Shown piece after piece: positions 13,661 to 61,109 of a DNA stretch of 64,000 nucleotides. The notes under the pieces are model-generated. The model had not been told where the DNA came from. It saw only the letters and a program-made list of their open reading frames with translations, and did not search any database. Numbering within the stretch: the stretch's first letter is position 1; the number at the start of each line of letters is the position of its first letter. Source of the DNA: Squalus acanthias (taxonomy: Eukaryota); assembly GCA_030390025.1 (NCBI GenBank), contig CM059432.1, positions 69,690,001 to 69,754,000 of the forward strand, given 5' to 3'. A program made the translations under genes and the position numbers.

Positions 13661-14180
13661 GGCTGCGAAATTGGAGTCTTTAGCACCGGTTGTTAAGGCC
13701 GGTTTGGAAGGAAAATGGCGGCCACCTCGCTTCCGACAATTTTGGTGGGTCCTGCGGCAGCCGCCATTTTGGGCAGGTCAGCGGCACTGCCGTTGCCTGC
13801 GTTCGCTGCAGAAATGGAAATGAGGCAGATCGTGACATTACTGAGTGTGCAACGTTGGTTTGATGCACAATGTGCCATTTTGGAAGTCGCCACTCCATTT
13901 AACACCCTCTCCTAATCACAACCAGCTGACTAAGCAGCAGAAAGGACCCCCTCCAGCGCTATTTAAAGGGATCATCAACAACTTGCAGCTGCCTTTTTTT
14001 TCATTTCTACTGGCTCTGTGTATGTTTGTGCAACTGTTTGGAGCTTTCTAGAGTTGTTTAAAGTTGTTGAGGTGACAGGAAGTAGTGCTGCTTCTCTTTT
14101 AAAGGGTTCTGCTCACACCACTTGTTCCAATCTTCGGGGTTCTACCTGCAGTCACTCTCGCGCTCGAGAATGACAGGGAG

Positions 14181-15258: not shown

Positions 15259-15478
15259 ATGAAACCCTAGATCCCTGTTGCTCACCACTTCCCCATCTTA
15301 CCATCCCTCTGTCACGGATCATTACAGCGCATTCCTGGGCGCAAAGCTGAAATGAGAACCACCACAAAACAAACACTCCAAACATAATTTACTTATGTAT
15401 CAAATCAAAATCAAAAGAACAAAGACAACTAATCACCATTGTGCATTTCCTTAGTGTCTATCTTTTGTATTGCTTTTC

Positions 15479-17120: not shown

Positions 17121-17712
17121 CTAAGCACCTCCCCTTTAAGAAGTAGAGTGCCTAGGACAAACTTATTTGGCCAGTAGACTACACCCGATATTGGCCTCCC
17201 TGTTCAGTGCTAAGCCAATCAGCAGGGCGTTTAATGCTGAGATCAGCGCTGCAATCATTATAATGAGCAGGCTGCATGAATTTTGCTGCCTGCGCCTGTT
17301 TTCAGGCCTTATCCAATTTCTAGGCCTCAGACTTCAGACAAGAGCTGCTGTACGACAAAACCTGAGGCCAGATCTGAGAACATATGCTTCTATAATCAAG
17401 GGTTTGGTAGATACCGTGATTGGATGACAGAGAGGTAAGCAGCTGCTGCCAAAGCTCCACAGCTCCAACTCGTAGAACCACCATTAGATTGGATATGCTG
17501 TGTTGGTGGTAATGCATTTATACATTTTATAGTGAGTTGTGCTGCTTACCATGTCATTTGTGAGGAGCTCCCAGTACCTTGTTATCAGATGATATCTGCT
17601 CTTGTCCATCATCTACTAACTAACTTGTGATAGGCCTCTTTGAAGGGGAGGTAAGCAGTCTTTCTGGGATCAAAGTGGCTCCAAGATGATATGCCTGGCA
17701 ATGGAAGATAGA

Positions 17713-34120: not shown

Positions 34121-34184
34121 GTAAGTGTCTCTGTCTTTGCTATACTGCTATTCCACTGCCCATAATATTGGCACTTGGATCACA

Positions 34185-35590: not shown

Positions 35591-35786
35591 ACAGACGGTG
35601 AGTACAAAAGAAGGCAATAAGCCTGTGCAAAAGTTATACGCTAGATTCTTTGGGCCCCAATTTTTATACTAATTAGGTGATCACCTTGTAATACAACTTG
35701 AGTGCCTGAGCAACAGTTCAGCGTTTGTTCCAAAATTGTGGCCCACAAAAGTTCAGGCACTTCTGCCTGGTGCCCCCTTACATTCT

Positions 35787-36570
35787 TAGAATCATAGAAT
35801 CATAGAATGGTTACAGCACAGAAGGAGGCGATTTGGCCTGTCGAGCCGTGCCAGCTCTCTGCAAGAGCACTTCAGCTAGTCCCACTCCCCCGCCCTTTCC
35901 CCGTAGCTTTGCAGATCCTTCAGGTACTTATCCAATTCCCTTTTGAAAGCTACGATTGAGTCTGCCTCCACCACCCTTTCAGCCAGATCCTAACCACTCG
36001 CTGCGTAAAAAGTTTTTCCTCATGTCGCCTTTGGTTCTTCTGCCAATCACCTTAAATCTGTGTCCTCTGGTTCTCGACCCTTCCGCCAATGGGAACAGTT
36101 TCTCTCTATCTACTTTGGCTAGACCCCTCATGATTTTGAACACCTCTATCAAATCTCCTCTCAACCTTCTCTGCTCTAAGGAGAACAACCCCAGCTTCAC
36201 CAGTCTATTCACGTAACTGATATTCCCCATCCCTGGAACCATTCTTGTAAATCTTTTCTGCACTCTCTCGAAGGCCTTCACATCCTTCCTAAAGTGCGGT
36301 GCCCAGAATTGGACACAATACTCCAGTTGAGGTCAAACCAGTGTTTTATAACGGTTCATCATAACTTCCTTGCTTTTCTACTCTCTGCCTCTATTTGTGA
36401 AGCCCCAGGATCCTGTATGCTTTTTTAACCGCTTTCTCAAACTGCCCTGCCACCTTCAGTGATTCGTGCACATATACCCCCAGGTCTCTCTGTTCATGCA
36501 CCCACTTTAGAATTGTACCCTTTAGTTTATATTGCCTCTCCTCGTTCTTCCTACCAAAATGTATTTCTTG
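35787..36570 (-). mobile_element. 5'-truncated CR1 LINE
   Basis: (TAGAATCA)n tail and ORF FERVQKRFTRMVPGM...RLRGDLIEVFKIM. Confidence 0.9.
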
Positions 36571-41554: not shown

Positions 41555-42626
41555 GCGAATGGTGAGCACCTGGAACGCGCTGCTGACGGAAGTGGTGGAA
41601 GCGGACACACTCAACGTTTTCAAGGGGAGACTGGATAGGCACTTGAGGGAAATAAACTTGCAGGGCTACGGGGATAGAGCGGGGGAATGGGACTGACTGG
41701 ATTGCTCTACAGAGAGCCGGCATGGACTCAGTGGGCCGAATAGCCTCCTTCTGTGCCTCTATGACTCTATGGGCGCGATCTTGCCAGCCCTGGGGAGGCG
41801 GGTATGGAGGCAGGACTACCAGGAAAATGGCAGAATTTGGGGGCGGGTGCCCAACCCGCCCCCAACCTGCCTCCATGCCATCTTGCCAGGAGGCGGGTAG
41901 CCGACCTGTGCCACATCCCGTCTCCTTGGAGGCGGGAAGGGGATTACAGCCACTTAACTGCCTGTTAACAGGTAGTTAACAGGCAGATAAGAGGATTATC
42001 CCCATTTTGCCCACACAAGTGCGGGCTTCCCGAAGGCTGCGAACCCCGCCAGGGTCACCGAGGCGAGCTGTGAGTCTGCGGGGGTTGCAGGGGTGCAAAA
42101 GTGCGCTGTGAAGGTAAGTGATGGGTGCAAGTGTGGAGAGGTGAATATGTGAGGTAAGTGGACAGTGTTAGAAAAAGTTTACTTACCTTTATTTCTTCCT
42201 GCAGGCTTCAAGAGTTGGGTATGCGGAGAGTCTCGCACCTCCGCAGCAGAGATGACAGATGGCCGTTGCATTCTCCAATGCAACAACCATCTAATTTCTG
42301 CAAAAGAAAGAGGTTTGATGAGGTCTTGAATTCAAGAACTCATCAAACAACAGAGAATGTCAGTGTGTGACAGCTTCACAGAGCTGTCAAACGATGACAA
42401 TTCATCTGTCAAAAATTTTTGACAGATGAAACGTCATACGTTGACGTTCTCAGTAGCCGGCTTTCCCTTAATTGGCCTGCTAAGCCCACTGGGCGGGCTT
42501 AACAAGGTCAATCAAGGGAAAATAGCGTGGGTTGGCCAGAAGTTGATGGAGGCGGGACTGAAACCCGACAAGTGGGAGTCCCACCTCCAAAAGCTCCCCA
42601 TTGGCAAAATCCAGCCCTATGACTCT
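41555..42626 (+). mobile_element. CR1 3' end whose (CTATGACT)n tail is split by a MITE
   Basis: CR1 3'UTR at 41555-41770 ends ctctatgactctat. The tail resumes as tatgactct at 42618. Confidence 0.8.
41771..42617. mobile_element. Harbinger-type MITE (family Y)
   Basis: TIRs gggcgcgatcttgcca / tggcaaaatccagccc and TAT TSD. Homologous to 56225-57068 in the opposite orientation. Confidence 0.85.
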
Positions 42627-43177
42627 TGCTATTGTAGTACTAGAAAAATTACTTGGAGTTTTGTTTACTATCTGTACATTTTAATTTCAGGATCCTCTTG
42701 AGATGGCTTGAAATGCTTTTTGAAACTTTCTAGAGACCTTCAGAAATGTTATTCCCGAATAAATGACATTTCCATTTAAATCTGCATTCCTTTAAACTTC
42801 ATTTGCACCGAATTTACCACTCCCACCACCACAGTGTTCCCTCGCACCATCCGAATCTGCACCTGGTGCTCTGAATATTTATGCAAGGAGCTTACTCTAG
42901 GAAATTGAGTGCTATTAGCACTTTACCATTATAATAAGATTTTTACTAGTCATAAACCATTTGGAACTGACTAATGTCAGTGCGTGAAAATTGACTACAT
43001 TACATTTCCCAGCAGAGACAAAACAGCATTTGGTAGACCAGCAGGCTCACAATACTTGTGGTCAACAAAGTATTTGATGGTTTATCGCCATCAGCTAGGA
43101 TCCATAGTTCAATTTCTTCCCACTTATTTTCTAATAATTATATTACAACTAATGCAAATCATATTTCTGTCTCACAG

Positions 43178-43256
43178 ATGGACACCTTCAGCATTGAGGC
43201 AGTTTCTGTTGGAATAATGAAAACGATTGTAATTGGCCATGATGGTGTGAAAGCAG
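43178..43256 (+). CDS. RP1: PLAT-domain protein exon 7 (MDTFSIEAVSVGIMKTIVIGHDGVKAG)
   Basis: tttctgtctcacag acceptor and GCAG|gtac donor, with the D.F.IEAV..G....I.IGHDG PLAT motif. The next exon was not found in the window. Confidence 0.92.
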
Positions 43257-43670
43257 GTACAGTATAATCAATTTACCTATATTTGAACTCTTGGTTATCA
43301 TACAGGGGAACATCACAGGGACAACAGTGATGATACCATTCCCAATGGTCATTTTTATGCTGGCTTACTGCTATCAGGTTACTGATGGTTCAGGCATTCA
43401 TGCTACTTTGGGGAGTAATGACGCTATTTGCAAATTTTGATATAAAGGTTTAATTTCCTATGTGTGCTATTTTTAACACATTTACTGTGCTATTTGGTGC
43501 AATTATTAATGGGGGAGAAATTTGTGTTCGCCAGAAAAGTTGCCGGTGTCATGGGGCATGGAGATTGGTGGCACAGCGCTTACCTTCTGTGCAACGCCGT
43601 CCTGGTGGCGTTGCTGGAGGCATCCGAGATGAAGTTCCTGTCCAGGTGCGGCATTGCAGCTTCCCACAGC

Positions 43671-46149
43671 CATAGAGACATAGGGGGAGAAATTCAGTAT
43701 CGCCCCATTTGGGGCGTAATTATCGGCCGGGCGCAAAGATTAGTGCCTGGTGATAATTATCGCCACCGACTGCAAACTTGACTTTTATCGCCCCTGGAGG
43801 TGATTGGAGCGCTAAATCAGGCGCTTCACACCTCTCTTAAGGCGCAAAGGCCGAGGAGCGAGGCGCTACCTCAGAGCGCGGCGCTACCTCAGAGCGCTGG
43901 CGAAGCTCATGTGATGTCAATCAGCAATGAAACACACACACAATGGCGCCGGCCAGTTCCTAAAGGGGAGGGTTGATCTTGCTTTCCATCCACATCCTGC
44001 TCATTGCAGCCTTGAATCTCGGCCTGGAGAGACCTGCACATCAAATCTGCTGGAAAGAACAATGGAGAGTACCAGGGAAAGAGCTCAGAATGCAGCCCCC
44101 ATAGTCTCTTCTAAATCGATAAAAGGAAGGGCAAATCAAAATGAACCTGCAAAGTGCTGCTCAGTACCCAAAACTCCTTCACACACCGTTGAATCTCTCC
44201 AGAAGTCTCTCTCTCTCTCTCTCTCTCAGAATGCGTGGTTCAAAAATGTCACCAACAAAAAAAGGCAGGAAGCGGTCGCCTTTAAATAGCGCTCCCCCAG
44301 TCCCTTCCTGACTGCAAAACGCTCCCCTCAAACTGTCGTTGCTAGCGGCAGGCAGTAAGGCTGGGGGCGCCACTCAATATCTGCTCCGGGGCGATACCGG
44401 GGCGTTGCGAACTTGACTGACGTCATGATCTGCCGGCGCAGGAGATCGTGGCGGTAGTGTTTAGTGCCACCGCAAAATGTCTAGTTAATTTCGCGAGCGG
44501 CGCAAACATCGCCGCGCCCGGGCGCTAGATGCTTTGCGCCCCATTAGCGCCCTCTTAAGGCGCTAACGGGAGGCGCAACCAACTGAATTTTTCCCCCATA
44601 GAGTTATACAGCACAGAAAGAGGCCCTTCGGCCCATCGTGTCTGCGCCGGCCATCAAGCCCTGTCTATTCTAATCCCATTTTCCAGCACTTGGTCTGTAG
44701 CCTTGTATGCTATGGCATTTCAAGTGCTCATCTAAATGCTTCTTGAATGTTGTGAGGGTTCCTGCCTCTACCACCCTTTCAGGCAGTGAGTTCCAGATTC
44801 CAACCACCCTCTGGGTGAAAAAGTCTTTCCTCAAATCCCCTCTAAACCTCCTGCCCCTTACCTTGAAATTATGCCCCCTGGTTATTGACCCCTCTACTAA
44901 GGGGAAAAGTTCCTTTCCATCTACCCTATCTATGCCCCCCATAATTTTGTACACCTCAATCAGGTCCCCCCTCAGCCTTCTCTTCTCTAAAGAAAACAAC
45001 CCCAGCCTGTCCAGTCCCTCCTCATAGTTGAAGCACTCCAGCCCAGGTAACATCCTGGTGAATCTCCTCTGCACCCACTCCAATGCAATCACATCCTTCC
45101 TATAGTGTGGTGACCAGAATTGCACACAGTATTCCAGCTGTGGCCTAACTAGCATTTTGTACAGCTCCATCATAACCTCTCTGCTCTTATATTCTATGCC
45201 TCGGCTAATGAAGGCAAGTATCCCATATGCCTTCTTAACCACCTTATCTACCTGTCCTGCTGCCTTCAGGGATCTATGTATATGCACACCAAGGTCCCTC
45301 TGATCCTCTGTCCTTCCTAGGGTCCTACCATTCATTGTGTATTCCCTTGCTTTGTTAGTCCTCCCAAAATGCATCACCTCACACTTTCCAGGGTTAAATT
45401 CCATTTGCCACTGTTCTGCCCATCTAACCAACCCATCTATATCGTCCTGTAGCCTGAGGCTTCCCTCCTCGCTATTTACCACTCCACCAATTTTTGTGTC
45501 ATCTGCAAACTTACTGATCATACCTCCTACATTCATATCTAAATCATTAATGTACACTACAAACTGCAAAGGACCCAGCACCGATCCCTGCGGTACACCA
45601 CTGGACACAGGCTTCCAGTCACAAAAGCAACCTTCGACCATCACCCTCTGCCTCCTGCCACTAAGCCAATTTTGGATCCAATGTGCCAAATTGCCCTAGA
45701 TCCCATGGGCTCTTACCTTCTTAACCAGTCTCCCATGCAGGACTTTGTCAAAAGCCTTACTGAAGTCCATGTAGACTACATCAACTGCACTACCCTCATC
45801 CACACACCTAGTCACCCCCTTGAAAAATTCAATCAAATTGGTTAGACATGATCTCCCCCTGACATGCTGACTATCCTTGATTAATCCTTGCCTCTCCAAG
45901 TGGAGACTAATTCTGTCCCTCAGAATTTTTTCCAATAATTTCCCTACCACTGATGTTAGGCTCACTGGCCTGCAATTCCCTGGTTTATCCCTACTACCTT
46001 TCTTGAATAATGGTACTACATTAGCTGTTCTCCAGTCCTCTGGCACCTCCCCTGTGGCCAGAGAGGTTCTGAAAATTTGTGTCAGAGCCCCTGCAATCTC
46101 CTCCCTTGCCTCACACAGCAGCCTGGGATACATCTCGTCTGGGCCTGGG
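43671..46149 (-). mobile_element. 5'-truncated CR1 LINE (RT), relatively young
   Basis: ORFs 45696-46149 and 44670-45689 contain YMDFSKAFDKV, GVPQGSVLGP and KFADDTK, separated by one stop. The catagag tail is split by a MITE. Confidence 0.95.
43683..44597. mobile_element. GC-rich Harbinger-type MITE (family X) in a CR1 tail
   Basis: TIRs gggggagaaattcagt / actgaatttttccccc and ATA TSD. Confidence 0.88.
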
Positions 46150-47575
46150 GGAGCCTCTGAAATCGAGGCTGTGGAGCTCACCAAGAATTGTGGGTAATGA
46201 AGAGGTCTGAGAATTAAAGGGGCCATGCAGATTGAAGCAATACAAATTAAAATGAAGTGAAATAATGCAGTTTTCGGCCCTTTCTGACTTTTAAAAAACA
46301 TTTAACATTAAAAACAATTCCAAATGTGAATATCCAGCTCTTAAAGCTGAATTATCTTCCTAACCTCAACAAATGGTAAAACTGTCTCAGCACTAACACA
46401 AATGGCTCAGCAAGCTAGGGAAGGGGCACCCAGGGTCTTGCACGCAGAGCTCCAGATTTGTGCAGGGGTTCAACACTGAAAGACAGGCCCTCTACCCACA
46501 AGGGCCAGGAGGTCCTCCAGAAAGAAGGGTGTGGAGTACATCACTGAGGCCATCACTGCCAGCAATGTCGCCCCCACCATCTGGCTCCAGTGCCCAAAGA
46601 AGCTTCATGACCTCAGACCAGTGGTTAAGGTCAGTAAATGCATCTTCAAAAGCCATCTCCTACCAACTGCACCACTAGCATCACACACTGCTCTATGCAC
46701 AACCCCCAATCACTCAACTACCAACAATCTGCACCAATCACGAGGCACATCTCCCATTCCTAGCCTCACCTCACCCCCTTGGAGGAGACAGTGCAGGCCA
46801 TTCTTGGCAAGGGCATGGCTGAGCCTCTGGCCAGCGGCGGAGCTGAAAAGATACAAGATGCTGGTATCCTCATACATTATCCTCCTTCTGGCATGCACCT
46901 CATGCTTTCCCACCCTCCCATCACCACAACTCCACCCTTGTCCCTTCCTCATTTCACACACCCAAGAAATGCAGCCTGCCTAGCCAGTGGTTGACCAAGA
47001 AGAGGGAGAGGAGAGTGAAGAAGAACAAGAAGAAGAAGAAGATTGCTTTGACACTCCCAGCTAAGACATTTGCAGTGTCCCCCACTGAAAGTCAGCAACC
47101 TTCCACCAGCCATACTGCAGCCACTGGGGTAGCACTACGTGACATCATTAACATAGGTAAAGGCACAAACGAGACAGTCACTAAGAGAATGCAAATGAGT
47201 GATGAGTTGATTTCTTGATGCCACATTGGATGGATAGATGTATATAGGTGGATTGAAAAGTTTGCTTGTGGTGGCTTTTATTTCAGCATCATGGCCAAGA
47301 GGATGTTGTGATGGTCAGTAACAGAGGGAAGGTAAGGTGTGGGACTAATGTTGAAAGGGGAATTGAGGTTGTGGTCACTGGGACCGCAGGCGGATGATTC
47401 GATCCCGGATATCCTGGCCAGAAAGGGGCTGTCTGGGATGCATCCTTCCGTCTGATTCTTCCTTTTCTGATTCCTGCTCTTCGGCTTCCTCCTCTTCTGC
47501 TTCTTCCTCTCTGGCTTCCTCCTCTTCTGTGTCTTCCCCTTCCCTCTACAAGTGATGCTGTAAATGTGAAATGAC

Positions 47576-47692
47576 AGCATAAAATGCTGGAAACACTCAG
47601 CTGGTCAGGCAGCATCTCGACCTGAGACGTGAACTCTGTATTTCTCTCCATTGATGTTGCGTGACCTGCTGAGTAGTCACAGCATGTTTTGT
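47576..47692. repeat. Short decayed palindromic repeat (Penelope-like or SINE hairpin)
   Basis: atgctggaaacactcagctggtcaggcagcatc ... gatgttgcgtgacctgctgagtagtcacagcat form imperfect inverted arms. Confidence 0.55.
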
Positions 47693-49049
47693 CTTCTCAA
47701 AGGCCTTAATTTACCATCCAAACCCTTGCAAGCATCCAGCAGCACTCCCTACAAACTTAAAAAACTTTTCACATCTATTGCAGCATACCACCACGTCAAT
47801 AAAATCAAAAAATCCCAGTCCAAAACCTTACGTTCAAACTTACCTAATGATGTGTGTGTCGCTTTAAGAGCTGCAGACATCGCCACTGTTAACCTGGCAT
47901 GCTTAGGACCCAGCGCTGAATTCAGCGCTAGGATTGAAGTTCGTGTTGGTGACGTTAAGTCGGTGTTGCACGCCGATTGACGTCACCGTGCCGCCATTTT
48001 TTCTTTTAGGGTGCTACCAGTTACCGGCAGCACAAAGGGGGACATGAATATGGCGGCCGCCACGGGACCCACCACCAGCTGGTGAAAGAGCGGCGGCCGC
48101 CATTTTATTGCCATTTCATGGCGCTACGGAGTGTCGGTAAGTAGATGAATTTCTAGCCCAATGTGTTTAAAATAAACGGATTAATGACTGTGCTAAAACA
48201 GCACAGATAGGAAGTTAACATGAATATATTAACCAATGTGTTAAATAGTGTACAAAGGAAATTAAACTTAATAGTCCTTTGAATGATTTTTAAAAATTAA
48301 CTCATCGTACTGACTCTACCCCTCCAGATTAGAATAGTTTTGGTCTTAGGTTAGTACCTGTATATCACAGAACTATTCAAAATTTGAAACATGGCTCAAA
48401 TTAAACGGTTTACCCCTCCCCTATAGTTGGATTCAGTCTACTGGCTTTATCATTATACTCAACATATTGAACCCATGCCTGAATTTACACATAGTTGTAA
48501 ATGCTACCCAAATGTGGCACCATGCTAAACTGCCATTTTTTGTTTGGTGATAAGCAATTAATTTACTGGCAGGTTAAAAAAAATCATACCTTTAATTGCT
48601 TTAATCTAACTCGTATGTTTGTTCTCATTAAGCTGAGGGACTTCAGGACTGGTGAACGGAACATGATTCAACTTTTGGCATTGTCAGGTTGGGTGTAATG
48701 GTGGGGGCGAGTTACAAATGAAGCTCCCTCAATTCTGCCACAGCAAAGCATGTTAAACTCAAACTTTAATTGCACCAGTTGATTTTTTTTAACCATTTCC
48801 CGCATAAGTAATCCTTTTGGTCTATGAGTGATATTGTCAATTCAGTACCAGCTAATGCCAAATTATGGACAGTTTTGCAGGCAGGTCTGCAGGAGGGTGG
48901 GAAACTCAGTGATTGGGTGAGTAGGTTCATTGTTGCATTTGATGTTGTACCTAATACTAAATAACCTTGGATCACTGCAGGACTAATGAAATCAATAGTG
49001 TACTTACTATATGTAAATGATTTGTTTCTTTTTTTAAGAAACATTACCA

Positions 49050-49905
49050 CATTTAAAAAATTAATTCTCGGGAAGTGAGCGTCACAGGCAGTTATTGCTC
49101 ATCCCTCGTTGCCCTGAGTTGCTGATGGTGGGTCTTCTTCTTGACCTGCTGCATTCTATATGGAGAAGGTACTCCTACAATGCTGTTAGGCAAGGAGTTC
49201 TAGGATTTTGATCCAGTGACGATGAGGGAACAATGATATACGCAGGATGGAATTTGGCTTGGAGGGACAATGTTCACATGCACCTATTGCTTCTAGGTAG
49301 TACAGGTTGCAGGTTTGGGAATTGGTGCCAAAAAAGCCTTCGTAAGTTGCTCCAATGCATCCTGTAGATAGTACACCCTGCAGCCAAGTACTCCAGTGAT
49401 GTAGGGGGTAGATGTTTAGGCTAGTGAATGAGGTGCTGATCAAACGGACTGCTTAGTCCTGCATAGTGTTGAGCTTTTTGAGTGTTGTTGCAGCTGCATC
49501 CATTCAGGCAAGTGTAGAACATTCCATCACACTCCCTGTATGTGGTGGGGAGGCTTGGGGAAGTCAGGAGGTGAGTCACTCTCTACAGAATACCCAGCTT
49601 CTGACCTGGTCTAGTGGCCATGGTATTTACATGGCTGGCCAAGTTGCTTCTCTGGCCAATGGTGACTCACGACGATGTTAGTGGTGATGGTAATGCATTG
49701 AATGTTAAGGGGAGGTGGTTAGGCTCTCTCTTGCTAGAGATGGTCATTGCCTGGTACTTGTATTGCGCGAATGTTACCTGCCACTTATGAGCCCAAGCCT
49801 TGATGTTGTCCAGGTATAGACTGTTTTATTATCTGAGGAATTGTGACTAGAGCTGAACTTTGTGCAACCATCAGCAAACAGCTCCACTTCTGACCTTATG
49901 ATGGA
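49050..49905 (-). mobile_element. Decayed LINE B-family 3' fragment
   Basis: Colinear similarity to 21810-22720. Confidence 0.75.
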
Positions 49906-49989
49906 CGATAAGCAATTTTATTTTTCCTAAAGGTGCTACTGACCTTTAAGAAAACAACCTGAAAAATGGAAACTGAAAATGGAAATAAA

Positions 49990-51812
49990 TGTTGCTAAAC
50001 ATTGGGAAGACCGAAATCATCGTTTTCAATATCCCCGCCACAAACTCCATACTGTTGCCACTGATTCCATTCCCCTCCCCAGCTGCTGCCTCAGGTTAAC
50101 CAGATCGTTCACAACCTCAGTGTGAGCTTCCGACCCCATATCCTCTCCATCACAAAGACCATCTGCTTCCACCTCCATGGCGCCACCTGTCTCCACCCCT
50201 GCCTCGGCCCATCGACTGCCGAAACCCTCATTCATACCTTTGTCACCTCCAGACTCACTATTCCAATGCTCTATTGGCCGGCCTCCTATCCACCACCCTC
50301 CACAAATTTTAGCTCATCCAAAATTCTGCTGCCCATGTCCTATCCTGCATCAAGTCCTGCTCACCCATCATCTTCTTCTTCTTCTTCTTAGGCAGTCCCT
50401 CGGAACCAAGGATGACTTGCTTCCACACTAAAAATGAGTTCTCAGGTGACTGATGAGTCCAATGCGGGACCTACAGTCTCTGTCACAGGTGGGGCAGACG
50501 GTGGTTGAAGGGGCGGGTGTTCTAAGAAGAGAAGAAGGGTGGGGTGCGCTTGGGTTTTTCACCATCCTCCGCTTGCTTCACGATGACATGCAATCCATGA
50601 TCCTGACCAACGGGTCCACCACAGACCCAATTCACGTATGGACCGGGGTCAAGCAAGGCTGTGTCATCGCACCAACGCTCTTCTCGATCCTCCTGGCTGC
50701 AATGCTCCATCTCGCCCTCAGTAAGCTCCCCGCTGGAGTGGAGCTAATCTACAGAACAAATGGGAAACTGTTCAACCTCCGTCGCCTCCGGTCCAGATCC
50801 AAGGCTGTCCCAATCTCTGTCATCGAATTACAGTATGCAGACGACGCTTGCGTCTGCACACACTCTGAGGTCGAACTCCAAACCATCGTCAACACCTTCA
50901 CTGAAGCGTACGAGAGCATGGGCCTTACACTAAACATCCGTAAGACAAAAGTCCTCTACCAACCTGCCCCCGACACACAGTACTGCTCCCCGATTATCAA
51001 AATCCATGACGAGGCCTTGGACAACGTGGACCACTTTCCATACCTCGGGAGCCTACTGTCAACAAGGGCAGACGTCGATGACGAAGTCCAACACCGCCTT
51101 CAGTGTGCCAGTGCAGCCTTCGGTTGCCTGAGGAAGAGAGTGTTTGAAGACCAGGACCTCAAACCCAGCACCAAACCTATGGTCTACAGAGCAGCAGTGA
51201 TACCCGCCCTCCTGTGTGCTTCAGAGACATGGACCATGTACAGCAGGCACCTCAAAGCACTGGAGAGGTACCACCAATGCTGCCTCCGCAAGATCCTGCA
51301 AATCCATTGGCAGGATAGGCTCACCTACGTCCGTGTTCTTGCTCAGGCCAACATCCCCTGCTCACCCATCACCCCTGAGCTCGCTGGCGTACATTAGCTG
51401 CTGGTCCTCCAATGCCTTGAATATAAAATTCTCATCCTCAAGTTTAAATCCTTTCATGGCTTCGCCCTTCCCTATTTCTGTAACTTTTTTTAGTGCTACA
51501 ACCCTCCAAGAACTTTGCATTCCTCCAAATCTGGCCTCTTGTGCATCCTCATTCTCTTCGCCCCACCATTGATGGCCATGTCTTCAGCTGTGTAGGACCT
51601 AAGCTTTGGGATTCTCTCCCTAAACTTCTCTGCCTCTCCACCTCCTGCTTTAAGACCCTTCTTAAAACAGACCTCTTTGATGAAACTTTTAGTCACCCCT
51701 CTTAATATCTCCTTCTTCGGCTCAGTGTTGATATTTATCTGATTGTGCTTCTGTGAAGTGCCTTGTGACGTTTTTCAACATTAATGTAACAGCAATATAA
51801 ATGCACATTGTT
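49990..51812 (+). mobile_element. L2 LINE 3' fragment interrupted by an RTE insertion
   Basis: Colinear with 38230-39085 and ends FKTLLKTDLF plus an L2 tail. Confidence 0.85.
50371..51356. mobile_element. RTE-clade LINE insertion with 5' inversion
   Basis: 15-bp TSD cctgctcacccatca (50356-50370, 51357-51371). The 3' end with an (AAG)n tail and CPTCDRDCRSRIGLISHLRTH is on - (50371 to about 50558). RT motifs GVKQGCVIAPTLF, YADD and FPYLGS are on +. Confidence 0.9.
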
Positions 51813-51872
51813 TTTCTTGAAGATGGAACTTGATTTGCAATAGTGCAATTTTGAGAACTATAAAATGACTCT

Positions 51873-54800
51873 GGGGGAAAAATACGTCCCCTTAGCGCCT
51901 ACCGGGCGCTAGACCAGTATCGCTGGGGCGAGGTGAATCCAGCGCTGCATGCCAAATCCGGCCCCCCCCCCCCCCCCCCGTAGCGCAGCTGGCAAGAGGT
52001 ATCACTGGGATTGTCAACGCCAGATGGATCATGCCGTCAGTGACCGCCCAATTTGCTAAATTGATTCTCGCCACTTACCTCAGCGCCTGGAGTAAACACC
52101 GACAGGGAGAGCTCGCGTGAAGCACCAGGAAGCCGGTTCCAGGGACGTTATTTAAAGGGATCATCAGTAATCACTCGCAGCTGTCAGGTTAGTACAGCTT
52201 CAGTGGTTTCTTATCTGTTTCACCCACTGCAACAGTTTCATTCAGTAATTTCAAGATTCCTTTGTATCAGGAGTCTTCTGGCAACTAAAAAGTAGCTACA
52301 TTTATTCTTCAAAGATTCAAACTGCTACACTTGGTAATATTAATGGGGGCAGTACTGGCATGTCACCTCGCTCTCCAGGATCTACAGCAGAGGGAGCGTA
52401 GGCAGCGAGAAACATGGGAACATGTGCGCAGAGAGATGAGGAGGGACATCAAGTTTCTCAACAGGAGGCCTTACCCTGCGAGGATATTCCGAGAACACTT
52501 CTCCTACCTTCAATGAAGCGAGGAGCAGTGTATTAGACGGCTCCACCTCACCAAGGAGGTGGTCACAGAACTCTGCCACCTCCTCCAAATAGACCTCCAG
52601 CCTCACATCAGGATGACTTAAAGGCCAGATCCCCTTTGCTCACCACATCCCCATCATTCCATCCCTCTCACAGGCCGTATCACACCGCGAAGCTGAAATG
52701 ACAGACAACACAAAAGAATGGTAAGTGAATTAATAAATTTATCAAAAATCAGTGAACACATATTTACACCAAAAATATTAACTTTTCACCCTTGCGCAAT
52801 CCCTTAGTGCCTGTTGTTACTGTGTCTTTGCCTACTTAGTGCTCCTATGAAGTGTTAGCCCAATGGCTGCAGCAGGGCTGGTAGAAGGCTGCTGAGTGTC
52901 CGTGCGGGAGACTTCAAATGGCCTTGCAGGACGACCTCGACTGGCTCTGAACCTGGAAGGCCCGGCTGTAGACTGCACCACCTCAGCATGGGCAGCAGTC
53001 TGGGCTGGCTGGATGACAGGCAGCGACAAGGGCAATGGCGGAGTGGCAGCGGTGGGAGCAGGAATGCTGTCATCCTGAGAGACGACAGCAGGTTCCTGCT
53101 CCACTAACCCACAGCCACTCCCCCGGGGCAGCACCATGGCGTCCCTAGCAATCTGTTGGAGCACAAATTGCTGGCCTGCTGTGACACCGTGAAAGCCCTG
53201 GTCGACGGTGGTAGACCCAGCCACGATGGCAGCAGGCAGAGCTTGCGTGGCATCAAGCTGAGACTGCATGAGAGCAGCCTGAGATTGGATGCCACCAAGC
53301 ATTGACTGCATTACAGCACTAAGATATTTCGTCACTTCCGCCTGTGTTGCAATGGAAGCTGCCAGATCGCCCCTCACACGCAGCATCAGGCCTGGGTCGA
53401 TACGTTCTCTCTGGGAGTCTACCATCCTTTGCAGACTGGAAATGATGGACTCCATGGTGTGCGCAGAGCCTTGTGCAATGTTGGAGGGGGACTCCTCCAC
53501 GCTTCTTATCATTGTTGAGAGGCTCTCAGGCACCCTTGCCATTGCACCTATCATCTCCGTGTGCATGCCCATCACTCTTCTTCTAAAGTCCTCCCCATCG
53601 AGGTCCTCATTTGAGTCCTGTGCAGCAGAACTCGCGTGCGAACTCGCCCTCCGGGGAGCTGGCCCCCAAGCTACCTTTTCCCTCTGGCCTTGCTGCAGCC
53701 CACTCGTCACTGGTGCCTCACACTGTGCAGATCCCGCTACTATACTAGCCTCTAAAGAACCCGTAGTGCCAGTATCTGAGCTGGTGTCTGCAGGTGAAAG
53801 ATGCAGTGACGCGGTGTTTTCTTCCTCCACCTGTTCTCCCGCATCACTCTCAACGGTACCCTCAGGGACAGGCTGTTCAGGTGCTTGCTGATTATCTGAA
53901 AGCATAAAGGCACAAGGTGAGGGGAGGGGGGCAGGAAGGGAGAAATGCATGCATACAGCATGATTAGCTGGAAAGTGCAAAACGCTTGTGTGGTGAGGGG
54001 GAAGTGGGATGTGAGAAGAAGGAGTAGGGATTAACATACTGTTGCTGTCCCCAAGTGAGTCAACTTCGCTGGTGGCCACGGCGCCCAACACCTGGCGCCC
54101 AATAATCTGCAGCACTTGATTTTCCAGCGCAGACAGTGGTTGGGTGTTGGCTTGTCCCCCGCCTGTGCGCTCCTGCTCCCTCCTGTTGTGAGCCACCTTG
54201 GCCTGCAAGAGAAAGGAAAGAGTGTGATGTGCCTGCCATGGTTGAATAGCTGTCATTGTGTTCAAGGTGTGAGATGTGGGTGTGAGTGTTGGTGGGTAGT
54301 GATTGTTGGTGGGTGAGTGCTGGGGATGTGGTGCTTTGGGCAGTGTGTGTAGATTGTGGTTCAGATTGTGGTATGTAGCATTTGTTGAAGCATTCACTCA
54401 CCCTAACTACCCGAGTGAGGTCGTTAAATTTCTACCTGCACTGTGTGTGGGTCCTGGGGACCACAATGCTACCAGAGACGTGCTGCGCTACCTCCCTCCA
54501 CATGGTGCAGAAGACTTGTGGCGAGGGCCTCCTGCCACTTGCCGGGTAGAGCACCACCCTCCGTCTCTCCACAACGAAAATCAATGCCTTCAATGCTTCA
54601 TCGGAGAATCTGCGGGCTCTCTCCCTGGGGTGTGGATCTGCCATGAGCACACATAGTTCAGTCCTCCGGCTCCTTCTGCTTGTTCTGCTTCTGCTTGCTG
54701 AGGCAGCTGCATAGCCAGCAATTGTGAGAATGAGGTGCTGCAGCATCAATGAACCTCCCCTTTAAGTAGTGAAAAAAGCCTGTAGCAATCATGACTTGCA

Positions 54801-55003
54801 ATTAGACTGCACCTGATATTGGTCCACCCTTTGAGTGTAATGCCTATGAGCTTGGGTTTTAAGACTTGAATTGGGGCACCAATCATTTTATTGAGCAATG
54901 AGCACGAATTTTGCGTGCAGTCTAAAGAATTTGCGCCTTGCGCTAATTCTCCAACTTTTCTACCGACACCGCCCATTCCTTGGCTATAAGGAATTTCTAG
55001 CCA
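51873..55003. mobile_element. PIF/Harbinger transposon H5 (transposase mostly deleted, Myb gene nearly intact)
   Basis: Ends gggggaaaaatac / gaatttctagcc, with the right end matching H4. Transposase 5' stub at about 52343-52615 (RRPYPARIFREHFSYL). No clean direct TSD. Confidence 0.85.
52832..54645 (-). pseudogene. Harbinger Myb/SANT-like gene of H5: exons about 54645-54402, 54202-54040 and 53895-52832, with one in-frame TAG
   Basis: MADPHPRERARRFSDEALKALI...WREVA...QCR*KFNDLTRVVR|AKVAHNRREQERTGGG..., with GT-AG introns of 199 and 144 nt. Confidence 0.85.
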
Positions 55004-55279
55004 AGAATACCTCCAAGAGTAGGATGCTGTTTTTATATTGATGTTGATGAAGTTATCTCTGCTTTAGTTCTTGTGAGTCTTCGTACCAATTGTTGTAAAA
55101 TATTTTGTTTTACTTCTAGCACCATTACTGGCACCAGTGGGTTTTCCAATGGGCATTATCCTATCTGGTGTGTTTATCAGAAGAGGAGAAACTGTGGAGG
55201 GTTGTTAGACAGCTCTGACCACATGAGAAATGCGCTATGCCCACCCTTCGGTATTCTTCATCTGCAAACATAGATAGCC

Positions 55280-55760
55280 AGATCTCATATTGACAGGTAG
55301 CTAATGCTGGTGGGGTTCTTCTTCCCACTGGAAGCTGGGTCAGCAGGTCCAGTAGTATCACTAAGATATGTCCACTTGATCTGCGTCCCTGTAATGAACT
55401 CCAGACCCACTCTCTCTACCAGTGCACTGTGCTGCAGTATGTACGATCGACAGGATGCACTGTAGCAATTCATTAAGCTTATTTTGACAACATATTGCAG
55501 CCCCACCACCTCTACCATGAAGAAGGACAACAGTAGCAACACAACCTAGTCACATACCATTCTAACTTGGACATATACCACCATTCCATCATCATTACTG
55601 GATCAAAATTCTAGAATTGCCTGCTTGAAATCATTGTGGGAGCATCATCACCACAAGGCGGTTGACAGAGAAGGCCCACCACTACTTTATCAAGGCAACT
55701 AAGGATGAGCAATAAATGCTGCCTTGCCAGCATTGCCCATATTCTGAGATCAATAAAAAA
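55280..55760 (+). mobile_element. Decayed LINE B-family 3' fragment
   Basis: Ends gcaataaatgctgccttgccagcattgcccatattctgagatcaataaaaaaa. Confidence 0.7.
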
Positions 55761-56212
55761 ATGTGAATCCTGACTAATTGTAATATTGGATGCTTCTTTG
55801 AAAGCACTGAACTTACAGTAATGTTATACTTTTAGTGGCACAGCATAAAAGAAGACATGCCAGGATAACCTGATTGACCATTGCCACCAAGAAGCTACCA
55901 ACTACTTTTACAGACACTGGTATACTTACTTGGCAATGACTGGAAAACTGACTTCACAGGGTCTGCATCAGCAGAGAGGCAACTACAGTGCTGTGCCACT
56001 GCTGTGAGGACAACTACAGCTACCACGCAGTATAACCTATCACATCTAGTGAAAGTAAAGGGAGAATTTTAACCCCCAAGGAAGCGTGGGTTGGGGGCTG
56101 GTGGGGAGGTAAATATTGTAAAATTCTCAAATCCGACTCCAACACGCCCATCTCTGGGTTTAACGGAGGCACGTTTGGCTGTGTGCGAGCAACCTGCTCG
56201 CCAGAGACGGGT

Positions 56213-59200
56213 CATAGAGTCATAGGGCTGGATTTTGAAACTCAGGTCGGGTTGGTGTCGTGAATCCCACATTTTGGCTTGTAAACCCGCCTCCATCGAG
56301 ATGTGGCCAACCCACTGTATTTTCCCTTGATTGACCTTGTTGAGCCCGCCCAGTGGGCTCAGCAGGCCAATTAAGGGCCACCCAGCAACAGGTGACATCA
56401 CAGATTGACATTTCATCTGTCAAGAGCTTTTGACAGATGAAATATCAGCGTTTGACAGCTCTGTGAAGCTGTCAAACACTGACAATATGATTTCTAACTT
56501 GAGTCCTTCCTCTCAGGCTGAGTTAGAAATCATTCCACCACAGAAAACAGAAGGCTGCAGTTTTTGACAGGACCACGGCTTTTCTGCTTTCTGTGCCGGT
56601 GAGATTTCTGACTCCCGAGAACTGAAGGGCTGACACCTGCAGGAGGAAGTTAAGGTAAGTAAAACTTTTTCCCACACTTAGCACTTACCTTACAAACTTA
56701 CCTCTGCACACATGCACCCATCACTCACCTGCCCATCGGACATATCGACCCCTCCAACCCCTGCAGACCCACGGTCCGCCCCGATTACTTGGCGTGGTTG
56801 CCACCTGTCGGGAAGCCCACATTTCACCTTTTAAAATAGGGATTATTCAAAAAACTGCCTGTTAACTACCTGTTAACAGGCAGTTAATTGTCACTCATCC
56901 CTTCCCACCTCGGGGAATCGGGTCTCAGCACAGGTCGGGTACCCGCCGCCAGCGAAACTGGCATGGAGGCAGGTTGGAGGCGGGATGGGGTCGGGACCCC
57001 CGAATCTGCAACTTTAACCCCCCACACGCCTCCAAACCTGACTCCACAGGTCATTGAAAATCCAGCCCATAGAGTCATAGAGTTATACAGCACAGAAAGA
57101 GGCCCTTCGGCCCATCATGTCTGCACTGGCCATCAAGCCCTATCTATTCTAATCCCATTTTCCAGCACTTGGGCCGTAGCCTTGTATGCTATGGCGTTTC
57201 AAGTGCTCATCTAAATGCTTCTTGAATGTTGTGAGGGTTCCTGCCTCTACCACCCTTTCAGGCAGTGAGTTCCAGATTCCAACCACTCTCTGGGTGAAAA
57301 AGTTTTTCCTCAAATCCCCTCTAAACCTCCTGCCCCTTACTTTGAAACTATGCCCCCTGGTTATTGACCCCTCTACTAAGGGGAAAAGTTCCTTTCTATC
57401 TACCCTATCTATGCCCCTCATAATTTTGTACACCTCAATCAGGTCCCCCCTCAGCCTTCTCTGCTCTAAGGAAAAGAACCCCAGCCTGTCCAGTCCCTCT
57501 TCATAGCTGAAGCGCTGCAGCCCAGGTAACATCCTGGTGAATCTCCTCTGCACCCTCTCTAATGCAATCACATCCTTCCTATAGTGTGGCGACCAGAACT
57601 GCACACAGTATTCCAGCTGTGGCCTAACTAGCATTTTGTACAGCTCCATCATAACCTCCCTGCTCTTATATTCTATGCCTCAGCTAATGAAGGCAAGTAT
57701 CCCATATGCCTTCTTAACCACCTTATCTACCTGTCCTGCTGCCTTCAGGGATCTATGTACATGCACACCAAGGTCCCTCTGATCCTCTGTCCTTCCTAGG
57801 GTCCTACCATTCATTGTGTATTCTCTTGCCTTGTTAGTCCTCCCAAAATGCATCACCTCACACTTTTCAGGGTTAAATTCCATTTGCCACTGTTCTGCCC
57901 ATCTAACCAACCCTTCTATATCGTCCTGTAGCCTGAGGCTTCCCTCCTCGCTATTTACCACTCCACCAATTTTCGTGTCATCTGCGAACTTATTGATCAT
58001 ACCTCCTACATTCATATCTAAATCATTAATGTACACTACAAACAGCAAAGAACCCAGCACCAATCCCTGCGGTACACCACTGGACACAGGCTTCCAGTCA
58101 CAAAAACAACCTTCGACCATCACCCTCTGCCTCCTGCCACCAAGCCAATTTTGGATCCAATTTGCCAAATTGCCCTGGATCCCATGAGCTCTTACCTTCT
58201 TGACCAGTCTCCCATGCGGGACTTTGTCAAAAGCCTTACTGAAGTCCATGTAGACTACATCAACTGCACTACCCTCATCCACACACCTAGTCACCCCCTT
58301 GAAAAGTTCAATCAAATTGGTTAGACATGATCTCCCCCTGACATGCTGACTATCCTTGATTAATCCTTGCCTCTCCAAGTGGAGACTAATTCTGTCCCTC
58401 AGAATTTTTTCCAATAATTTCCCTACCACTGATGTTAGGCTCACTGGCCTGTAATTCCCTGGTTTATCCCTACTACCCTTCTTGAATAATGGTACTACGT
58501 TAGCTGTCCTCCAGTCCTCTGGCACCTCCCCTGTGGCCAGAGCGGTTCTGAGATTTTGTGTCAGAGCCCCTGCAATCTCCTCCCTTGCCTCACACAGCAG
58601 CCTGGGATACATCTCGTCTGGGCCTGGGGATTTATCCACTTTTAAGCCCGCTAAAACCGCTAGTACCTCCTCCCTCTCAATGCTAATTTGTTCAAGTATA
58701 TCACAATCCCCCTGCCTGATTTCTATGCCTGCATCGTCCTTCTCCATAGTGAACACAAATGCAAAATATTCATTTAAAGCCTCCCCTACATCTTCTGGCT
58801 CTACACACAGATTGCCACTTTGGTCCTTAATGGGCCCTACTATTTCCCTGGTTATCCTCTTGCCCTTAATATACTTATAAAATACCTTGAGAGTTTCCTT
58901 TATTTTGCCCGCCAGTGTTTTTTCATGCCCCCTCTTCGCTCTCCTAATTTATTTTTTAATTCCCTCCCTGCACTTTCTATACTCCTCTAGGGCTTCCACT
59001 GTTTTTAGTCCTTTGTATCTGCCAAAAGCCTCCCTTTTTTTCCTAATCCATTCTTGTATATTTCTTGACATCCAGGGTTCCCTGGACTTGTTGGTCCCAC
59101 CCTTGACCTTTATGGGAACATGTTGGCGCTGTACTCTCTCTATATCCTTTTTGAATGACTCTGAATGCTCTGATGTGGATTTTCCTACAAGTAGCTGATC

Positions 59201-60804
59201 CCAGTCCACTTTGGCCAGATCGTGCCTTATCATATTAAAATCGGCCTTCCCCCAATTTAGAACTTTTATTTCCGGTCCATCTTTGTCCTTTTCCATGACT
59301 ACCTTAAATCTCACCGAATTATGGTCACTGTCACCAAAATGCTCTCCTACTGACACTTCTACCACTTGCCCGGCTACATTCCCTAGAATTAGGTCCAGTA
59401 CTGCCCCCTCTCTTGTAGGACTTTCTACATGCTGGCTCAAAAAGCTCTCCTGGATGCACTTTAAGAATTCCGCACCCTCTAAACCTTTCACACTCTGACT
59501 ATCCCAGTTAATATTGGGGAAGTTGAAATCCCCTACTATTATTACCCTATCATTTCTACACTTCTCTGAGATTTGCCGACATATCTGTTCCTCTATCTCA
59601 CCCTAACTGTTTGGGGGCCTATAGTACACTCCCAGCAAAGTGCTTGCCCCCTTTTTGTTTTTATGTTCTACCCATATGGCCTCATTAGAGGAAGCTGCTA
59701 AGATATCATCCCTCCTTACTGCAGCAATTGACTCCTTGATTAATATTGCGACACCCCCTCCTCTTTTACACCCCCCTCTGTCTCGTCTGAAGATTCTATA
59801 CCCCGGAATATTGAGCTGCCAGACCTGCCCCTCCCTCAACCATGTCTCTGTGATAGCAACAATATCATACTCCCATGTGTTCATCAACACCTTCAATTCA
59901 TCTACCTTACTCGTAAGACTCCTTGCATTAAAATAAATGCCCTCCAGCCTTGCCATACTCCCTTGTGCCATTCCATATTTGCTCTGCCTTCCAGACTGAC
60001 TTGTTTTTTCCTCTATATTTGGCTGTGCATCACCCCCTACTATAACTCCACTCCGTATCCCATCCCCCTGCCAAGTTAGTTTAAACCCCCTCCAACAGCA
60101 CTTGCAAACCTCCCCGCAAGGATGTTGGTCCCGTTCCGGTTCAGGTGCAACCCGTCCGACTTGTACAGGTCCCACCTTCCCCAGAAACAGACCCAGTGAT
60201 CCAGGAAACTAAAGCCCTCCCTCCTGCACCAACTCTTTAGCCACGCATTCATCTGCCCTATCCTCCTATTCCTACACTCACTAGCATGTGGCACCGGGAG
60301 TAATCCAGAGATTACAACCTTTGAGGTCCTGCTTTTTAATCTGCTACCTAGCTCCCTAAATTCTTGTTGCAGGACCTCATCCCTCTTTCTACCCATGTCG
60401 TTGGTACCAATGTGAACCACGACCTCTGACTGTTCGCCCTCCCCCTTCAGAATGCCCTGCAGCCGTTCAGTGACATCCTTGACCCTGGCACCAGGGAGGC
60501 AACATACCATCCTGGAGTCACGTCTGCAGCTGCAGAAACGCCTGTCTGCACCCCTCACTATTGTGTCTCCTACCACTATTGCCCTTCCACTCTTACTCCT
60601 CCCGCCTTGTGCAGCTGAGCCACCCACAGTGCCGTGAACTTGGCTCTGGCTGCACTCCCCAGAGGAACTGTCACTTTCACCATTTTCCAACACAAAAAAA
60701 CGGTTGTTGAGTGAGATGCACTCTGGGGCTTTCCTGACTAACTGCCTGCCCCCCTTCTTCTGATTGGTGGTCACCCATTCGCTCTCTGACTGCACTTTCT
60801 TAAG
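56213..60804 (-). mobile_element. Near full-length CR1 LINE: ORF1 SGNH esterase plus ORF2 EN-RT with a few disablements
   Basis: ORF1 60076-60795 (IVVGDTIVRG, CLPGARV, HIGTND), EN (YFNARSL, AITETWL, GVYYRPP), RT 57680-58756 and C-terminus 57149-57652. Stops at about 59603 and 57680, frameshift near 58949. Confidence 0.96.
56225..57068. mobile_element. Harbinger-type MITE (family Y) in a CR1 tail
   Basis: TIRs gggctggatttt / aaaatccagccc and ATA TSD inside (CATAGAGT)n. Confidence 0.88.
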
Positions 60805-61109
60805 CTGTCAATCATTATCACATGTTGATGAGGTGCTTTTGAAGAGATTCCAACAGGGATTTGAATTTAATTCCTCCAGCAAGGGTTACCTGGGGCTCGG
60901 GAAACTTGCCAGTGAAACGCAGGCGAGATTGAGCAGCACTCATAGAGTGTTTAAAGTTCTAATTGCCCAATATGAATAAAGGCTCAGTGCTTACAGCTGC
61001 TTTCTCAGTTTCCTGTGGCAAACGTTTTGCAGGGAGTTCTTGTGATCCTAGGCGTGTTTCCGAAGTTTGGAGGCTTTCAAACAGACAACAGCAGGATGGG
61101 GAGGGTCCC

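Follow-up and report, generated by a model that had tools for sequence, protein, structure and literature searches.

The locus analysed here raises the question of why three MITEs should lie at one and the same triplet of the tail repeats of three different CR1 retrotransposons. The original prediction for this window (the whole 64,000-nucleotide stretch of Squalus acanthias DNA that was analysed) had read them as Harbinger-type insertions into a preferred target, and the junctions that it described were confirmed at all three sites.

Results

The MITEs belong to two unrelated families, X and Y (no match between them by blastn), with intact TIRs and a perfect 3-bp TSD at each of the three sites (TAT, ATA and ATA on both sides at sites 1, 2 and 3, respectively). 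In the CR1 sense, the duplicated triplet is always the TAT of the CTCTATGA unit, and every MITE is flanked by tail sequence on both sides. Sites 1 and 3 have the insertion in the second tail unit, site 2 has it in the first, and the family Y copies of sites 1 and 3 turn the same end toward the CR1 body.

At site 1, a short non-coding 3' fragment of an older CR1 subfamily, assigned by its 3'-end similarity and including the hairpin region (41592..41770, plus strand), ends in a proximal tail (41757-41770) whose last three bases are the left TSD (41768-41770). The family Y MITE follows (847 bp, 41771..42617, gactc-TAT...TAT-gactc), with 13 of 16 terminal bases complementary, and then the right TSD TAT with a distal tail remnant (42618..42626, plus strand). 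At site 2, the distal tail unit with its TSD (43671..43682, minus strand) precedes a family X MITE of 915 bp (43683..44597, gagac-ATA...ATA-gagtt; 15 of 16 terminal bases complementary). The other TSD, the proximal tail and a 5'-truncated young CR1 that retains the C-terminal half of the reverse transcriptase (RVT_1, E 1.4e-12) occupy 44598..46150 on the minus strand, with the 5' junction of the CR1 at 46150. Its host is a larger, internally deleted Harbinger with TSD AAT (43511..48159); it has sequence in common with the element at 13661-17326 and the paralogs of the latter, in their Myb and transposase regions. Site 3 lies beside the left end of another larger Harbinger (56060..56211), host of the third CR1. 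It consists of a distal tail unit with TSD (56212..56224, minus strand), a family Y MITE of 844 bp (56225..57068, gagtc-ATA...ATA-gagtc; 14 of 16 terminal bases complementary) and the second TSD, proximal tail and long young CR1 (57069..60810, minus strand, 5' limit approximate), which contains reverse transcriptase (RVT_1, E 8.3e-31), endonuclease (Exo_endo_phos_2, E 1.9e-11) and part of an esterase-type ORF1 (Lipase_GDSL_2, E 2.2e-13). The host Harbinger probably continues across this CR1, resuming near 60810 and taking in a transposase remnant at 61256-61906 (DDE_Tnp_4, E 1.3e-5); no right end for it was found within the window. An observation absent from the original prediction is that sites 2 and 3 sit 172 and 165 bp, respectively, inside the left end of their larger Harbingers.

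The window holds eight CR1-type 3' ends, whose tails total 167 bp. With the tail share computed over 58,821 bp (the window with six MITEs taken out), 0.043 tail insertions would be expected under uniform placement among 15 hand-catalogued Harbinger-type elements, six of them without a verified TSD. Three were found, the other 12 lying outside tails; the binomial P of about 1e-5 is post hoc and overstates the surprise, because the window was picked for the pattern. Three candidates were kept out of the catalogue: a short one at 35652-35744, for which no TSD was found, and two elements without Harbinger-type ends, a palindromic one at 17748-17863 and another near 19040-19420. A comparison of tail variants, suggested together with the original prediction, gave the direction that the target motif predicts, with CATAGAGT-type tails occupied in 3 of 3 cases and other tails in 0 of 5 (Fisher P 0.018). 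The CATAGAAT-type tail at 35787..35811 (minus strand) is indeed empty, as had been stated, and further empty tails lie at 2663-2690, 18072-18085, 34300-34313 and 35390-35405; the better-preserved empty tails read ATTCTATG. The two sites quoted for comparison are also real, namely gacac-TCA-gactt at 13661/17326 and ttgtc-ATT-gtgta at 869/1703. The former bounds a two-gene Harbinger (13661..17326, TSD TCA) that served as non-tail reference and has transposase and Myb/SANT remnants (DDE_Tnp_4, E 6.2e-16; Myb_DNA-bind_5, E 4.4e-10). In addition, a family X copy with TSD TTT (26514..27409), 86.4% identical to that of site 2, lies outside any CR1 tail; it is nested in another Harbinger, 49 bp from the right end of the latter.

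As judged by sequence, the three MITEs can be classed as PIF/Harbinger-like (PHIS) non-autonomous elements, with the TIRs and 3-bp TSDs described above, and their mobilisation in trans is putative. Partner elements with GG(G/C)..GAAATT-type ends gave DDE_Tnp_4 and Myb_DNA-bind_5 matches; the first 12 bases of family X are common to the element at 43511, while the match of family Y is looser. The target preference of the Harbingers extends beyond the TSD, as in other PHIS elements. The TSDs of the window are mostly A/T-rich (TAT, ATA, TTT, AAT and ATT, also TCA, AGT and TGT). With respect to the CR1s, endonuclease and reverse transcriptase domains were both found at site 3 and RVT_1 at site 2, and the alignment of the eight CR1 ends revealed a conserved 3' block, including the putative hairpin region, followed by octamer tails.

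A target motif was trained on 20 half-sites from 12 non-tail elements, a small set in which families are mixed and from which the tail sites were left out. T at +4 was present in 15 of these half-sites and a purine at +1 in 16. Among the eight registers of the tail, TAT scored highest (6.0 bits against 4.0 for the next), and CATAGAGT tails scored 6.0 against 4.3 for CATAGAAT tails. The occupied sites rank in the top 0.23, 0.06 and 0.23% of the 58,821 positions, and in the top 0.01-0.03% with a stricter set of 13 half-sites. The proposal that the CR1 tail matches the preferred target was thus borne out. Scoring by exact matches was less discriminating, TAT being tied with TCT against both the Harbinger3_DR flanks (7 vs 7 of 12) and the contig consensus (6 vs 6 of 12); the tail sites match that consensus at 6, 8 and 6 of 12 positions and the non-tail sites at 5-8. 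Two empty degenerate tails (2663 and 35390) hold sites which by the same motif score 8.0 and 7.3, higher than the occupied ones. A degenerate motif composed after the tails had been seen (12 sites, four of them in tails) was circular and was dropped as evidence. It must be noted that the motif predicts 0.29-0.41 tail insertions among the 15 elements, against the three seen (P 0.003-0.007). The excess is about 70-fold, of which the motif accounts for about 7-10-fold and leaves another 7-10-fold, so that it may be only part of the explanation.

The listings of contig joints and loose ends from public runs show presence only. Among the matches listed for run X17, 321 contigs exit the left end of family X with a consensus ending AAAACAC-TAT and 561 exit its right end with a consensus starting TAT-GTGTTTT. 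The flanks are diverse (consensus agreement 0.37-0.38), and their consensus is a palindrome near the Harbinger3_DR target AAACACCWGGTCTTT. As this consensus is not the tail, most family X copies lie outside tails, which are one target among many. The consensus past the right end starts with ATA, TTA, TAA and TAA in four runs. For family Y termini there was no loose-end row among the matches listed. In run X1, among the matches listed, ATA-GAGTC-ATA (one tail unit plus one TSD) connects a family Y end with another TIR-like end; in run X5, with the same scope, a degenerate tail unit connects a family Y end with the young CR1 3' end. Both joints suggest that tails elsewhere in the DNA of these runs have taken insertions too. 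A joint from 41612 to 43682 (runs X5 and X16), whose sides are bridged by undefined sequence, was left out of this count. Contigs from four runs (organisms A, I and J) all start at 42597, inside the right end of the site 1 MITE, so that this family Y insertion is likely common to the three organisms.

Searches with CR1 3'-end patterns gave no matches in viral contigs and metagenome contigs. With a CR1 protein query, all 12 viral-contig candidates went unconfirmed, and 2 of 130 candidates in prokaryote genomes were confirmed (0.5-kb contigs, 51-56% identity); these two, probably vertebrate contamination, were not used.

Discussion

We consider it probable that the three MITEs share one TAT through a transposase preference for loosely palindromic sequence around the 3-bp cut, and that the CTCTATGA repeat happens to offer such a site once in every unit. 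The mechanism by which CR1 retrotransposition leaves a tail is established, and a tail of 2-4 units, as seen in the sequence, would be deposited at every new copy. On either side of an A/T-rich triplet, the Harbingers of this window would favour a purine (+1), A/T (+2), T (+4) and a pyrimidine (+5), a pattern to which the non-tail half-sites and the contig consensus loosely point. By our scoring, only the TAT register places GAGTC and GACTC on its two sides, and insertions may therefore be phase-locked. Two-gene Harbingers would then mobilise the MITEs in trans, in later and independent insertions. Neighbouring units may stay usable, so that one tail could accept a second MITE one unit away, as a single contig joint suggests. 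The relation between CR1 and MITE is probably passive, with MITE copies mostly elsewhere and many tails empty. The notion of tails as landing pads is partly supported: the tail matches the preferred target, and composite movement found no support; that the motif accounts for only part of the excess counts against it.

What supplies the rest could be a second factor acting together with the motif, either the structure of the tail or the ends of resident Harbingers nearby, for instance a putative Myb protein or transposase already bound there. We regard this as rather unlikely, notwithstanding the excess that the motif leaves. Of seven MITEs, four are nested in another Harbinger-type element no more than 300 bp from its end (P ~6e-4, post hoc) and five no more than 500 bp (P ~3e-4, post hoc), at distances of 267, 49, 172, 165 and 474 bp. 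These include sites 2 and 3, which are confounded by their closeness to a resident end. However, the tail of site 1 has no enclosing Harbinger nearby, both cut-offs were set after the data were seen, and a motif built from 20 half-sites was flattened by pseudocounts and could understate the true preference. Chance combined with ascertainment is very unlikely as an explanation. There are great numbers of MITEs and of CR1 tails, the summed contig depth of the two repeats being extreme (depth is not copy number), and the window was selected because three of them coincide. Against this stand the P computed for uniform placement, the use at all three sites of the one register of eight predicted from other sites, and the two contig joints, among the matches listed, with tail-associated insertions at other loci.

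That CR1 and MITE travel together, through read-through copying of a master CR1 whose tail carries a MITE or through segmental duplication, is largely refuted for these three sites and we consider it extremely unlikely. The shared orientation of the family Y copies would fit such joint movement, and the few tail bases past each MITE could prime reverse transcription. However, the CR1s of sites 2 and 3, 96.6% identical over 1545 bp, hold unrelated MITEs at different tail units and differ in their 5' ends and hosts, which makes a composite unit, the possibility named in the original prediction as speaking against it, unlikely. In this regard, the two family Y copies are 72.8% identical and their CR1s 65% (167 aligned bases between the site 1 CR1 and those of sites 2 and 3). 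Moreover, the X5 joint, a single match, has the opposite Y end toward the young CR1, the X17 contigs leave family X into diverse flanks, and the young CR1 end appears without family X in 267-949 contigs per run among the matches listed. The reverse order, with the MITE first and a CR1 later primed on its flank through microhomology between tail and target motif, is likewise extremely unlikely. CR1-clade LINEs are able to use short 3' microhomology, and the tail is similar to the motif. It is the 6-10 in-register tail bases past the TSD on the far side of each MITE that count against this order, because they are expected only if the MITE split a pre-existing tail.

The preferred reading, target choice through a loose palindrome, has close relatives. 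Every characterised member of PIF/Harbinger is described as preferring an extended target, of 9-15 bp (PMC2836001). Harbinger3_DR of zebrafish has a 3-bp TSD inside the longer palindromic target AAACACCWGGTCTTT (PMC3016246); our family X consensus AAAACAC / GTGTTTT resembles its published AAACAC / GTCTTT, and both systems have two-gene elements with a DDE transposase and a Myb/SANT protein (PMC3016246, PMC2836001). In contrast, the TSDs here are mostly A/T-rich rather than CWG and the preference is looser, and a link to LINE tails is absent from the portions of the Harbinger3_DR descriptions available to us (PMC3016246, PMC2836001). Tourist-like MITEs (PIF, mPing) are likewise non-coding TIR elements that duplicate 3 bp and prefer an extended target, and their mobilisation depends on ORF1 plus transposase; ours are longer (840-915 bp vs 100-500 bp), live in a vertebrate host and show a motif of 5-7 bp per side, not 3 (PMC2836001). 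With the NuwaI group of PHIS elements they share an animal host, GGG-starting TIRs and DDE plus Myb/SANT ORFs; however, its defining CWG TSD (PMC4482050) occurs in none of the nine matched TSDs. The TWA of the narrow-sense PIF/Harbinger group (PMC4482050) is not among these nine either, but the contig consensus past the right end of family X starts with ATA, TTA, TAA and TAA in four runs. Amniote CR1 LINEs also end in an octamer microsatellite behind a 3' hairpin region and have endonuclease and reverse transcriptase domains; the three occupied tails, ACTCTATG, are one base from the avian ATTCTRTG (PMC8665684). Dada and Pokey, too, are DNA transposons found repeatedly in multicopy sequence, and Pokey prefers its repeat and uses other sites as well (PMC3706591). 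They differ in superfamily, in having conserved RNA genes as targets and in the Dada TSD of 6-7 bp (PMC3706591); the target here is the tail of another mobile element, and the strict specificity of Dada is absent, with 12 of the 15 elements outside tails and diverse family X flanks.

No paper on Harbinger insertion into CR1 tails was found in the literature searched, which leaves subscription journals and Repbase largely outside. The extended palindromic target preference is already known, while its match to the CR1 tail was not found in that literature; the surprise is limited because the underlying mechanism is known. A stronger version, in which Harbinger target choice in this lineage was tuned to, or reinforced at, the ACTCTATG tail and tail occupancy exceeds the prediction of a genome-wide motif, is decidedly unlikely. 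If it held, CR1 amplification would drive a pile-up of DNA transposons, with several MITEs one octamer apart per tail, and CR1 subfamilies, in changing between the two tail types (ATTCTATG and ACTCTATG), would have left a record of interaction between two transposon classes. The case as it stands is one of a transposon class making preferred, probably harmless, targets for another. It offers a natural test of Harbinger target choice, with two abundant tail variants one base per unit apart and a predicted register. Finally, CR1-MITE junctions of this kind can mimic composite elements, and may thus bias nesting-based repeat dating and repeat libraries in this lineage.

Structure of the Tail Insertions

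The window consists of intronic DNA from a vertebrate gene encoding PLAT domains, with one exon at 33990-34130 (PF01477 match at 33856-34191) and a second likely one at about 43180-43260, and it contains LINEs and Harbinger-type elements at high density. The original prediction described three Harbinger-type MITEs, from two families (X and Y), in the octamer tails that end CR1 copies, and all were found with the flanks quoted: family Y at 41771-42617 in the tail of an older-subfamily CR1 fragment (site 1), family X at 43683-44597 in that of a young CR1 (44598-46150) inside the Harbinger 43511-48159 (site 2), and family Y at 56225-57068 in that of a young CR1 (57069-60810) inside another Harbinger (site 3). 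Within the PLAT-domain gene, each of these sites seems to lie in an intron. A blind scan for inverted ends starting with GG plus a 3-bp duplication retrieved the three MITEs, with 13-15 of 16 terminal bases complementary. Deletion of the MITE and one target-site duplication (TSD) rebuilt an in-register tail at every site (two and a half, two, and three and a half units at sites 1, 2, and 3, respectively), the duplicated triplet always being the TAT of CTCTATGA. Since both flanks of each MITE consisted of tail sequence, the MITE split a tail that was already present.

Movement of CR1 and MITE as one composite unit, which the original prediction had set against its own reading, is made unlikely by near-identical CR1s carrying unrelated MITEs at different tail units. 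Sites 2 and 3 have CR1s that are 96.6% identical over 1545 bp and are separate insertions; the former ends at 46150, the latter extends to about 60810 with reverse transcriptase (RT), endonuclease and part of ORF1, and their host elements differ. No similarity was detectable between the MITEs of these two sites, and the tail units occupied also differ. At site 1 the tail belongs to a different CR1 subfamily, of which a 180-bp end is present (65% identical to the CR1s of sites 2 and 3); the family Y copies of sites 1 and 3 shared 72.8% identity. Contigs of public sequencing runs from three organisms (A, I, and J) all started at 42597, within the site 1 MITE and 21 bases from its right end, with 9-19 differing letters per 320-540 bases in the flank contigs of I and J; this insertion probably predates the split of the three organisms. 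Three events that differ in age and family at one register favor target choice over copying.

Target Motif and Size of the Excess

Fifteen Harbinger-type elements were catalogued by hand: nine whose TSDs match (in one of them the TSD is preceded by three extra bases), two with both ends and unmatched TSDs, and four with one end. The tails of the eight CR1-type 3' ends total 167 bp in 58,821 bp, and 3 of the 15 elements were tail-borne against an expectation of 0.043 (post hoc P of about 1e-5). In the comparison of tail types proposed originally, made here within the window, CATAGAGT-type tails were occupied in 3/3 cases and other tails in 0/5 (Fisher P 0.018).

The 20 half-sites of 12 non-tail elements had a purine at +1 (16/20), A or T at +2 (18/20), T at +4 (15/20) and a pyrimidine at +5 (16/20). 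With a matrix built solely from them, the insertion sites in the three tails ranked within the top 0.23, 0.06, and 0.23% of all positions. Among the eight registers TAT scored best (6.0 bits), followed by TCT (4.0), the rest being negative; ACTCTATG tails outscored ATTCTATG tails (6.0 vs. 4.3, or 7.5 vs. 5.1 with a stricter set of 13 half-sites).

Independently of the window motif, contigs of four runs were compared with 41450-44900, requiring 80% likeness. Run X17 had 321 contigs that departed at the family X left end, where the consensus ended in AAAACAC-TAT, and 561 that departed at the right end, where it started TAT-GTGTTTT; the consensus agreement of 0.37-0.38 indicates that family X flanks are diverse. 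In all four runs, contigs that departed near the right end went on with an A/T triplet followed by G-T-rich sequence. This palindromic consensus is almost the same as the Harbinger3_DR target AAACACCWGGTCTTT in the available text of PMC3016246.

Probable Tail Insertions at Other Loci

Among the contig joints listed (12 of 466 rows), one of run X1 led from a family Y end through ATA-GAGTC-ATA to another TIR-like end, a spacer that would be the expected residue of two insertions at adjacent units of one tail; its row shows no CR1 body. Another, of run X5, connected the 3' end of the young CR1 with a family Y end, a degenerate unit lying between them. This Y end is the one that points away from CR1 in the window, and the joint can be read as an additional tail insertion in opposite orientation. 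The young CR1 end without family X was found in 267-949 contigs per run, where the consensus continued with further tail. The CR1 3' hairpin-plus-tail block also occurred in tandem (joints 44641-44642 to 44597-44600) in several contigs of organisms I and J, up to 18 in a single run.

Other Elements

Each of the two young CR1s (43671 and 56212) entered a different Harbinger 150-160 bp in from its left end, and both have the same orientation; the host ends are only about 61% alike. The Harbinger 24552-27458 carries an extra ACA between right TIR and TSD (27459-27464), the reverse complement of the TSD TGT, suggestive of a hairpin-type addition or one made during repair. A large Harbinger at 51873-55002 has mismatched flanking triplets; on its minus strand runs a long uninterrupted frame of 521 aa from stop to stop (52832-54397), with no Pfam match. 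The Harbinger hosting site 3 contains a 15-bp tandem array of about 16 copies (61180-61440), in an open frame upstream of a transposase remnant. Donor-like GTAAGT words and the complements of these form a cassette common to the family Y copies (42100-42200, 56640-56710), and an internal repeat of CTGTTAAC words, direct and inverted (41955-41985, 56855-56885), is identical in two copies otherwise 73% alike. A 116-bp near-perfect palindromic element of a different type lies at 17748-17863. Two short contigs of an Aeromonas assembly (L001 1-538, L002 1-547) showed CR1-like RT pieces with 51-56% identity, probably vertebrate contamination.

Discussion

The original view of the tail as a preferred target agrees with the register and tail-variant scores; the motif explains the excess in part. 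The matrix places 1.9-2.7% of insertion weight on tails, so that 0.29-0.41 of the 15 elements would be expected there (P 0.003-0.007 for three), and the motif therefore covers a factor of about 7-10 in an excess of roughly 70-fold. What is left over may be due to ascertainment, to flattening of the matrix or to a further cause. It must be noted that TAT and TCT tie under exact-match scoring against the published or contig consensus, being separated only by the degenerate matrix and the A/T-rich TSD, and that two decayed empty tails contain sites outscoring occupied ones with the non-tail matrix. In addition, the insertion points of sites 2 and 3 are 172 and 165 bp in from the left end of a larger Harbinger in each case, and 5/7 MITEs lie within 500 bp (49-474 bp) inside another Harbinger-type end (869, 26514-27409, 40037, 43683, and 56225), a closeness that exceeds a uniform model (about 3e-4, post hoc P). 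Nearness to the ends of resident elements is therefore a live confounder.

Anatomy, motif and register match are shown by the sequences, whereas we infer that the transposase recognizes the site, that the MITEs were mobilized in trans and in which order the events took place at sites 2 and 3. We consider it reasonably probable that Harbinger proteins use CR1 octamer tails as targets, with MITE families landing there independently. CR1 deposits the tails; in the ACTCTATG variant, GAGTC and GACTC stand symmetrically about TAT once per unit, and proteins reading a loose palindrome around the cut could use this as a target, several families arriving independently while most copies go to other places.

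According to the available text of the sources, CR1 elements are known to have an octamer tail (PMC8665684), and characterized PIF/Harbinger elements have a 9-15-bp target preference set by element-encoded proteins (PMC2836001). In their mode of action the MITEs of the window resemble Tourist-type MITEs whose target is like that of Harbinger3_DR. The elements show the PHIS features tested and fail the CWG test of NuwaI (both as described in the accessible part of PMC4482050), and differ from Dada, which is strictly target-specific in the portion available of PMC3706591. As for the TWA duplication of PIF/Harbinger in the narrow sense, none of the nine matched TSDs in the window has this form, and the contig consensus beyond the family X right end starts with ATA, TTA, TAA, and TAA in the four runs. 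In the available text of the literature searched, outside subscription journals and Repbase, we found no description of Harbingers inserted in the tails of CR1 elements. The elephant shark was reported to be without Harbingers, and examination of other cartilaginous fish was urged (PMC9179366, available part). The phenomenon is real and a known target preference explains most of it; the novelty is the target itself.
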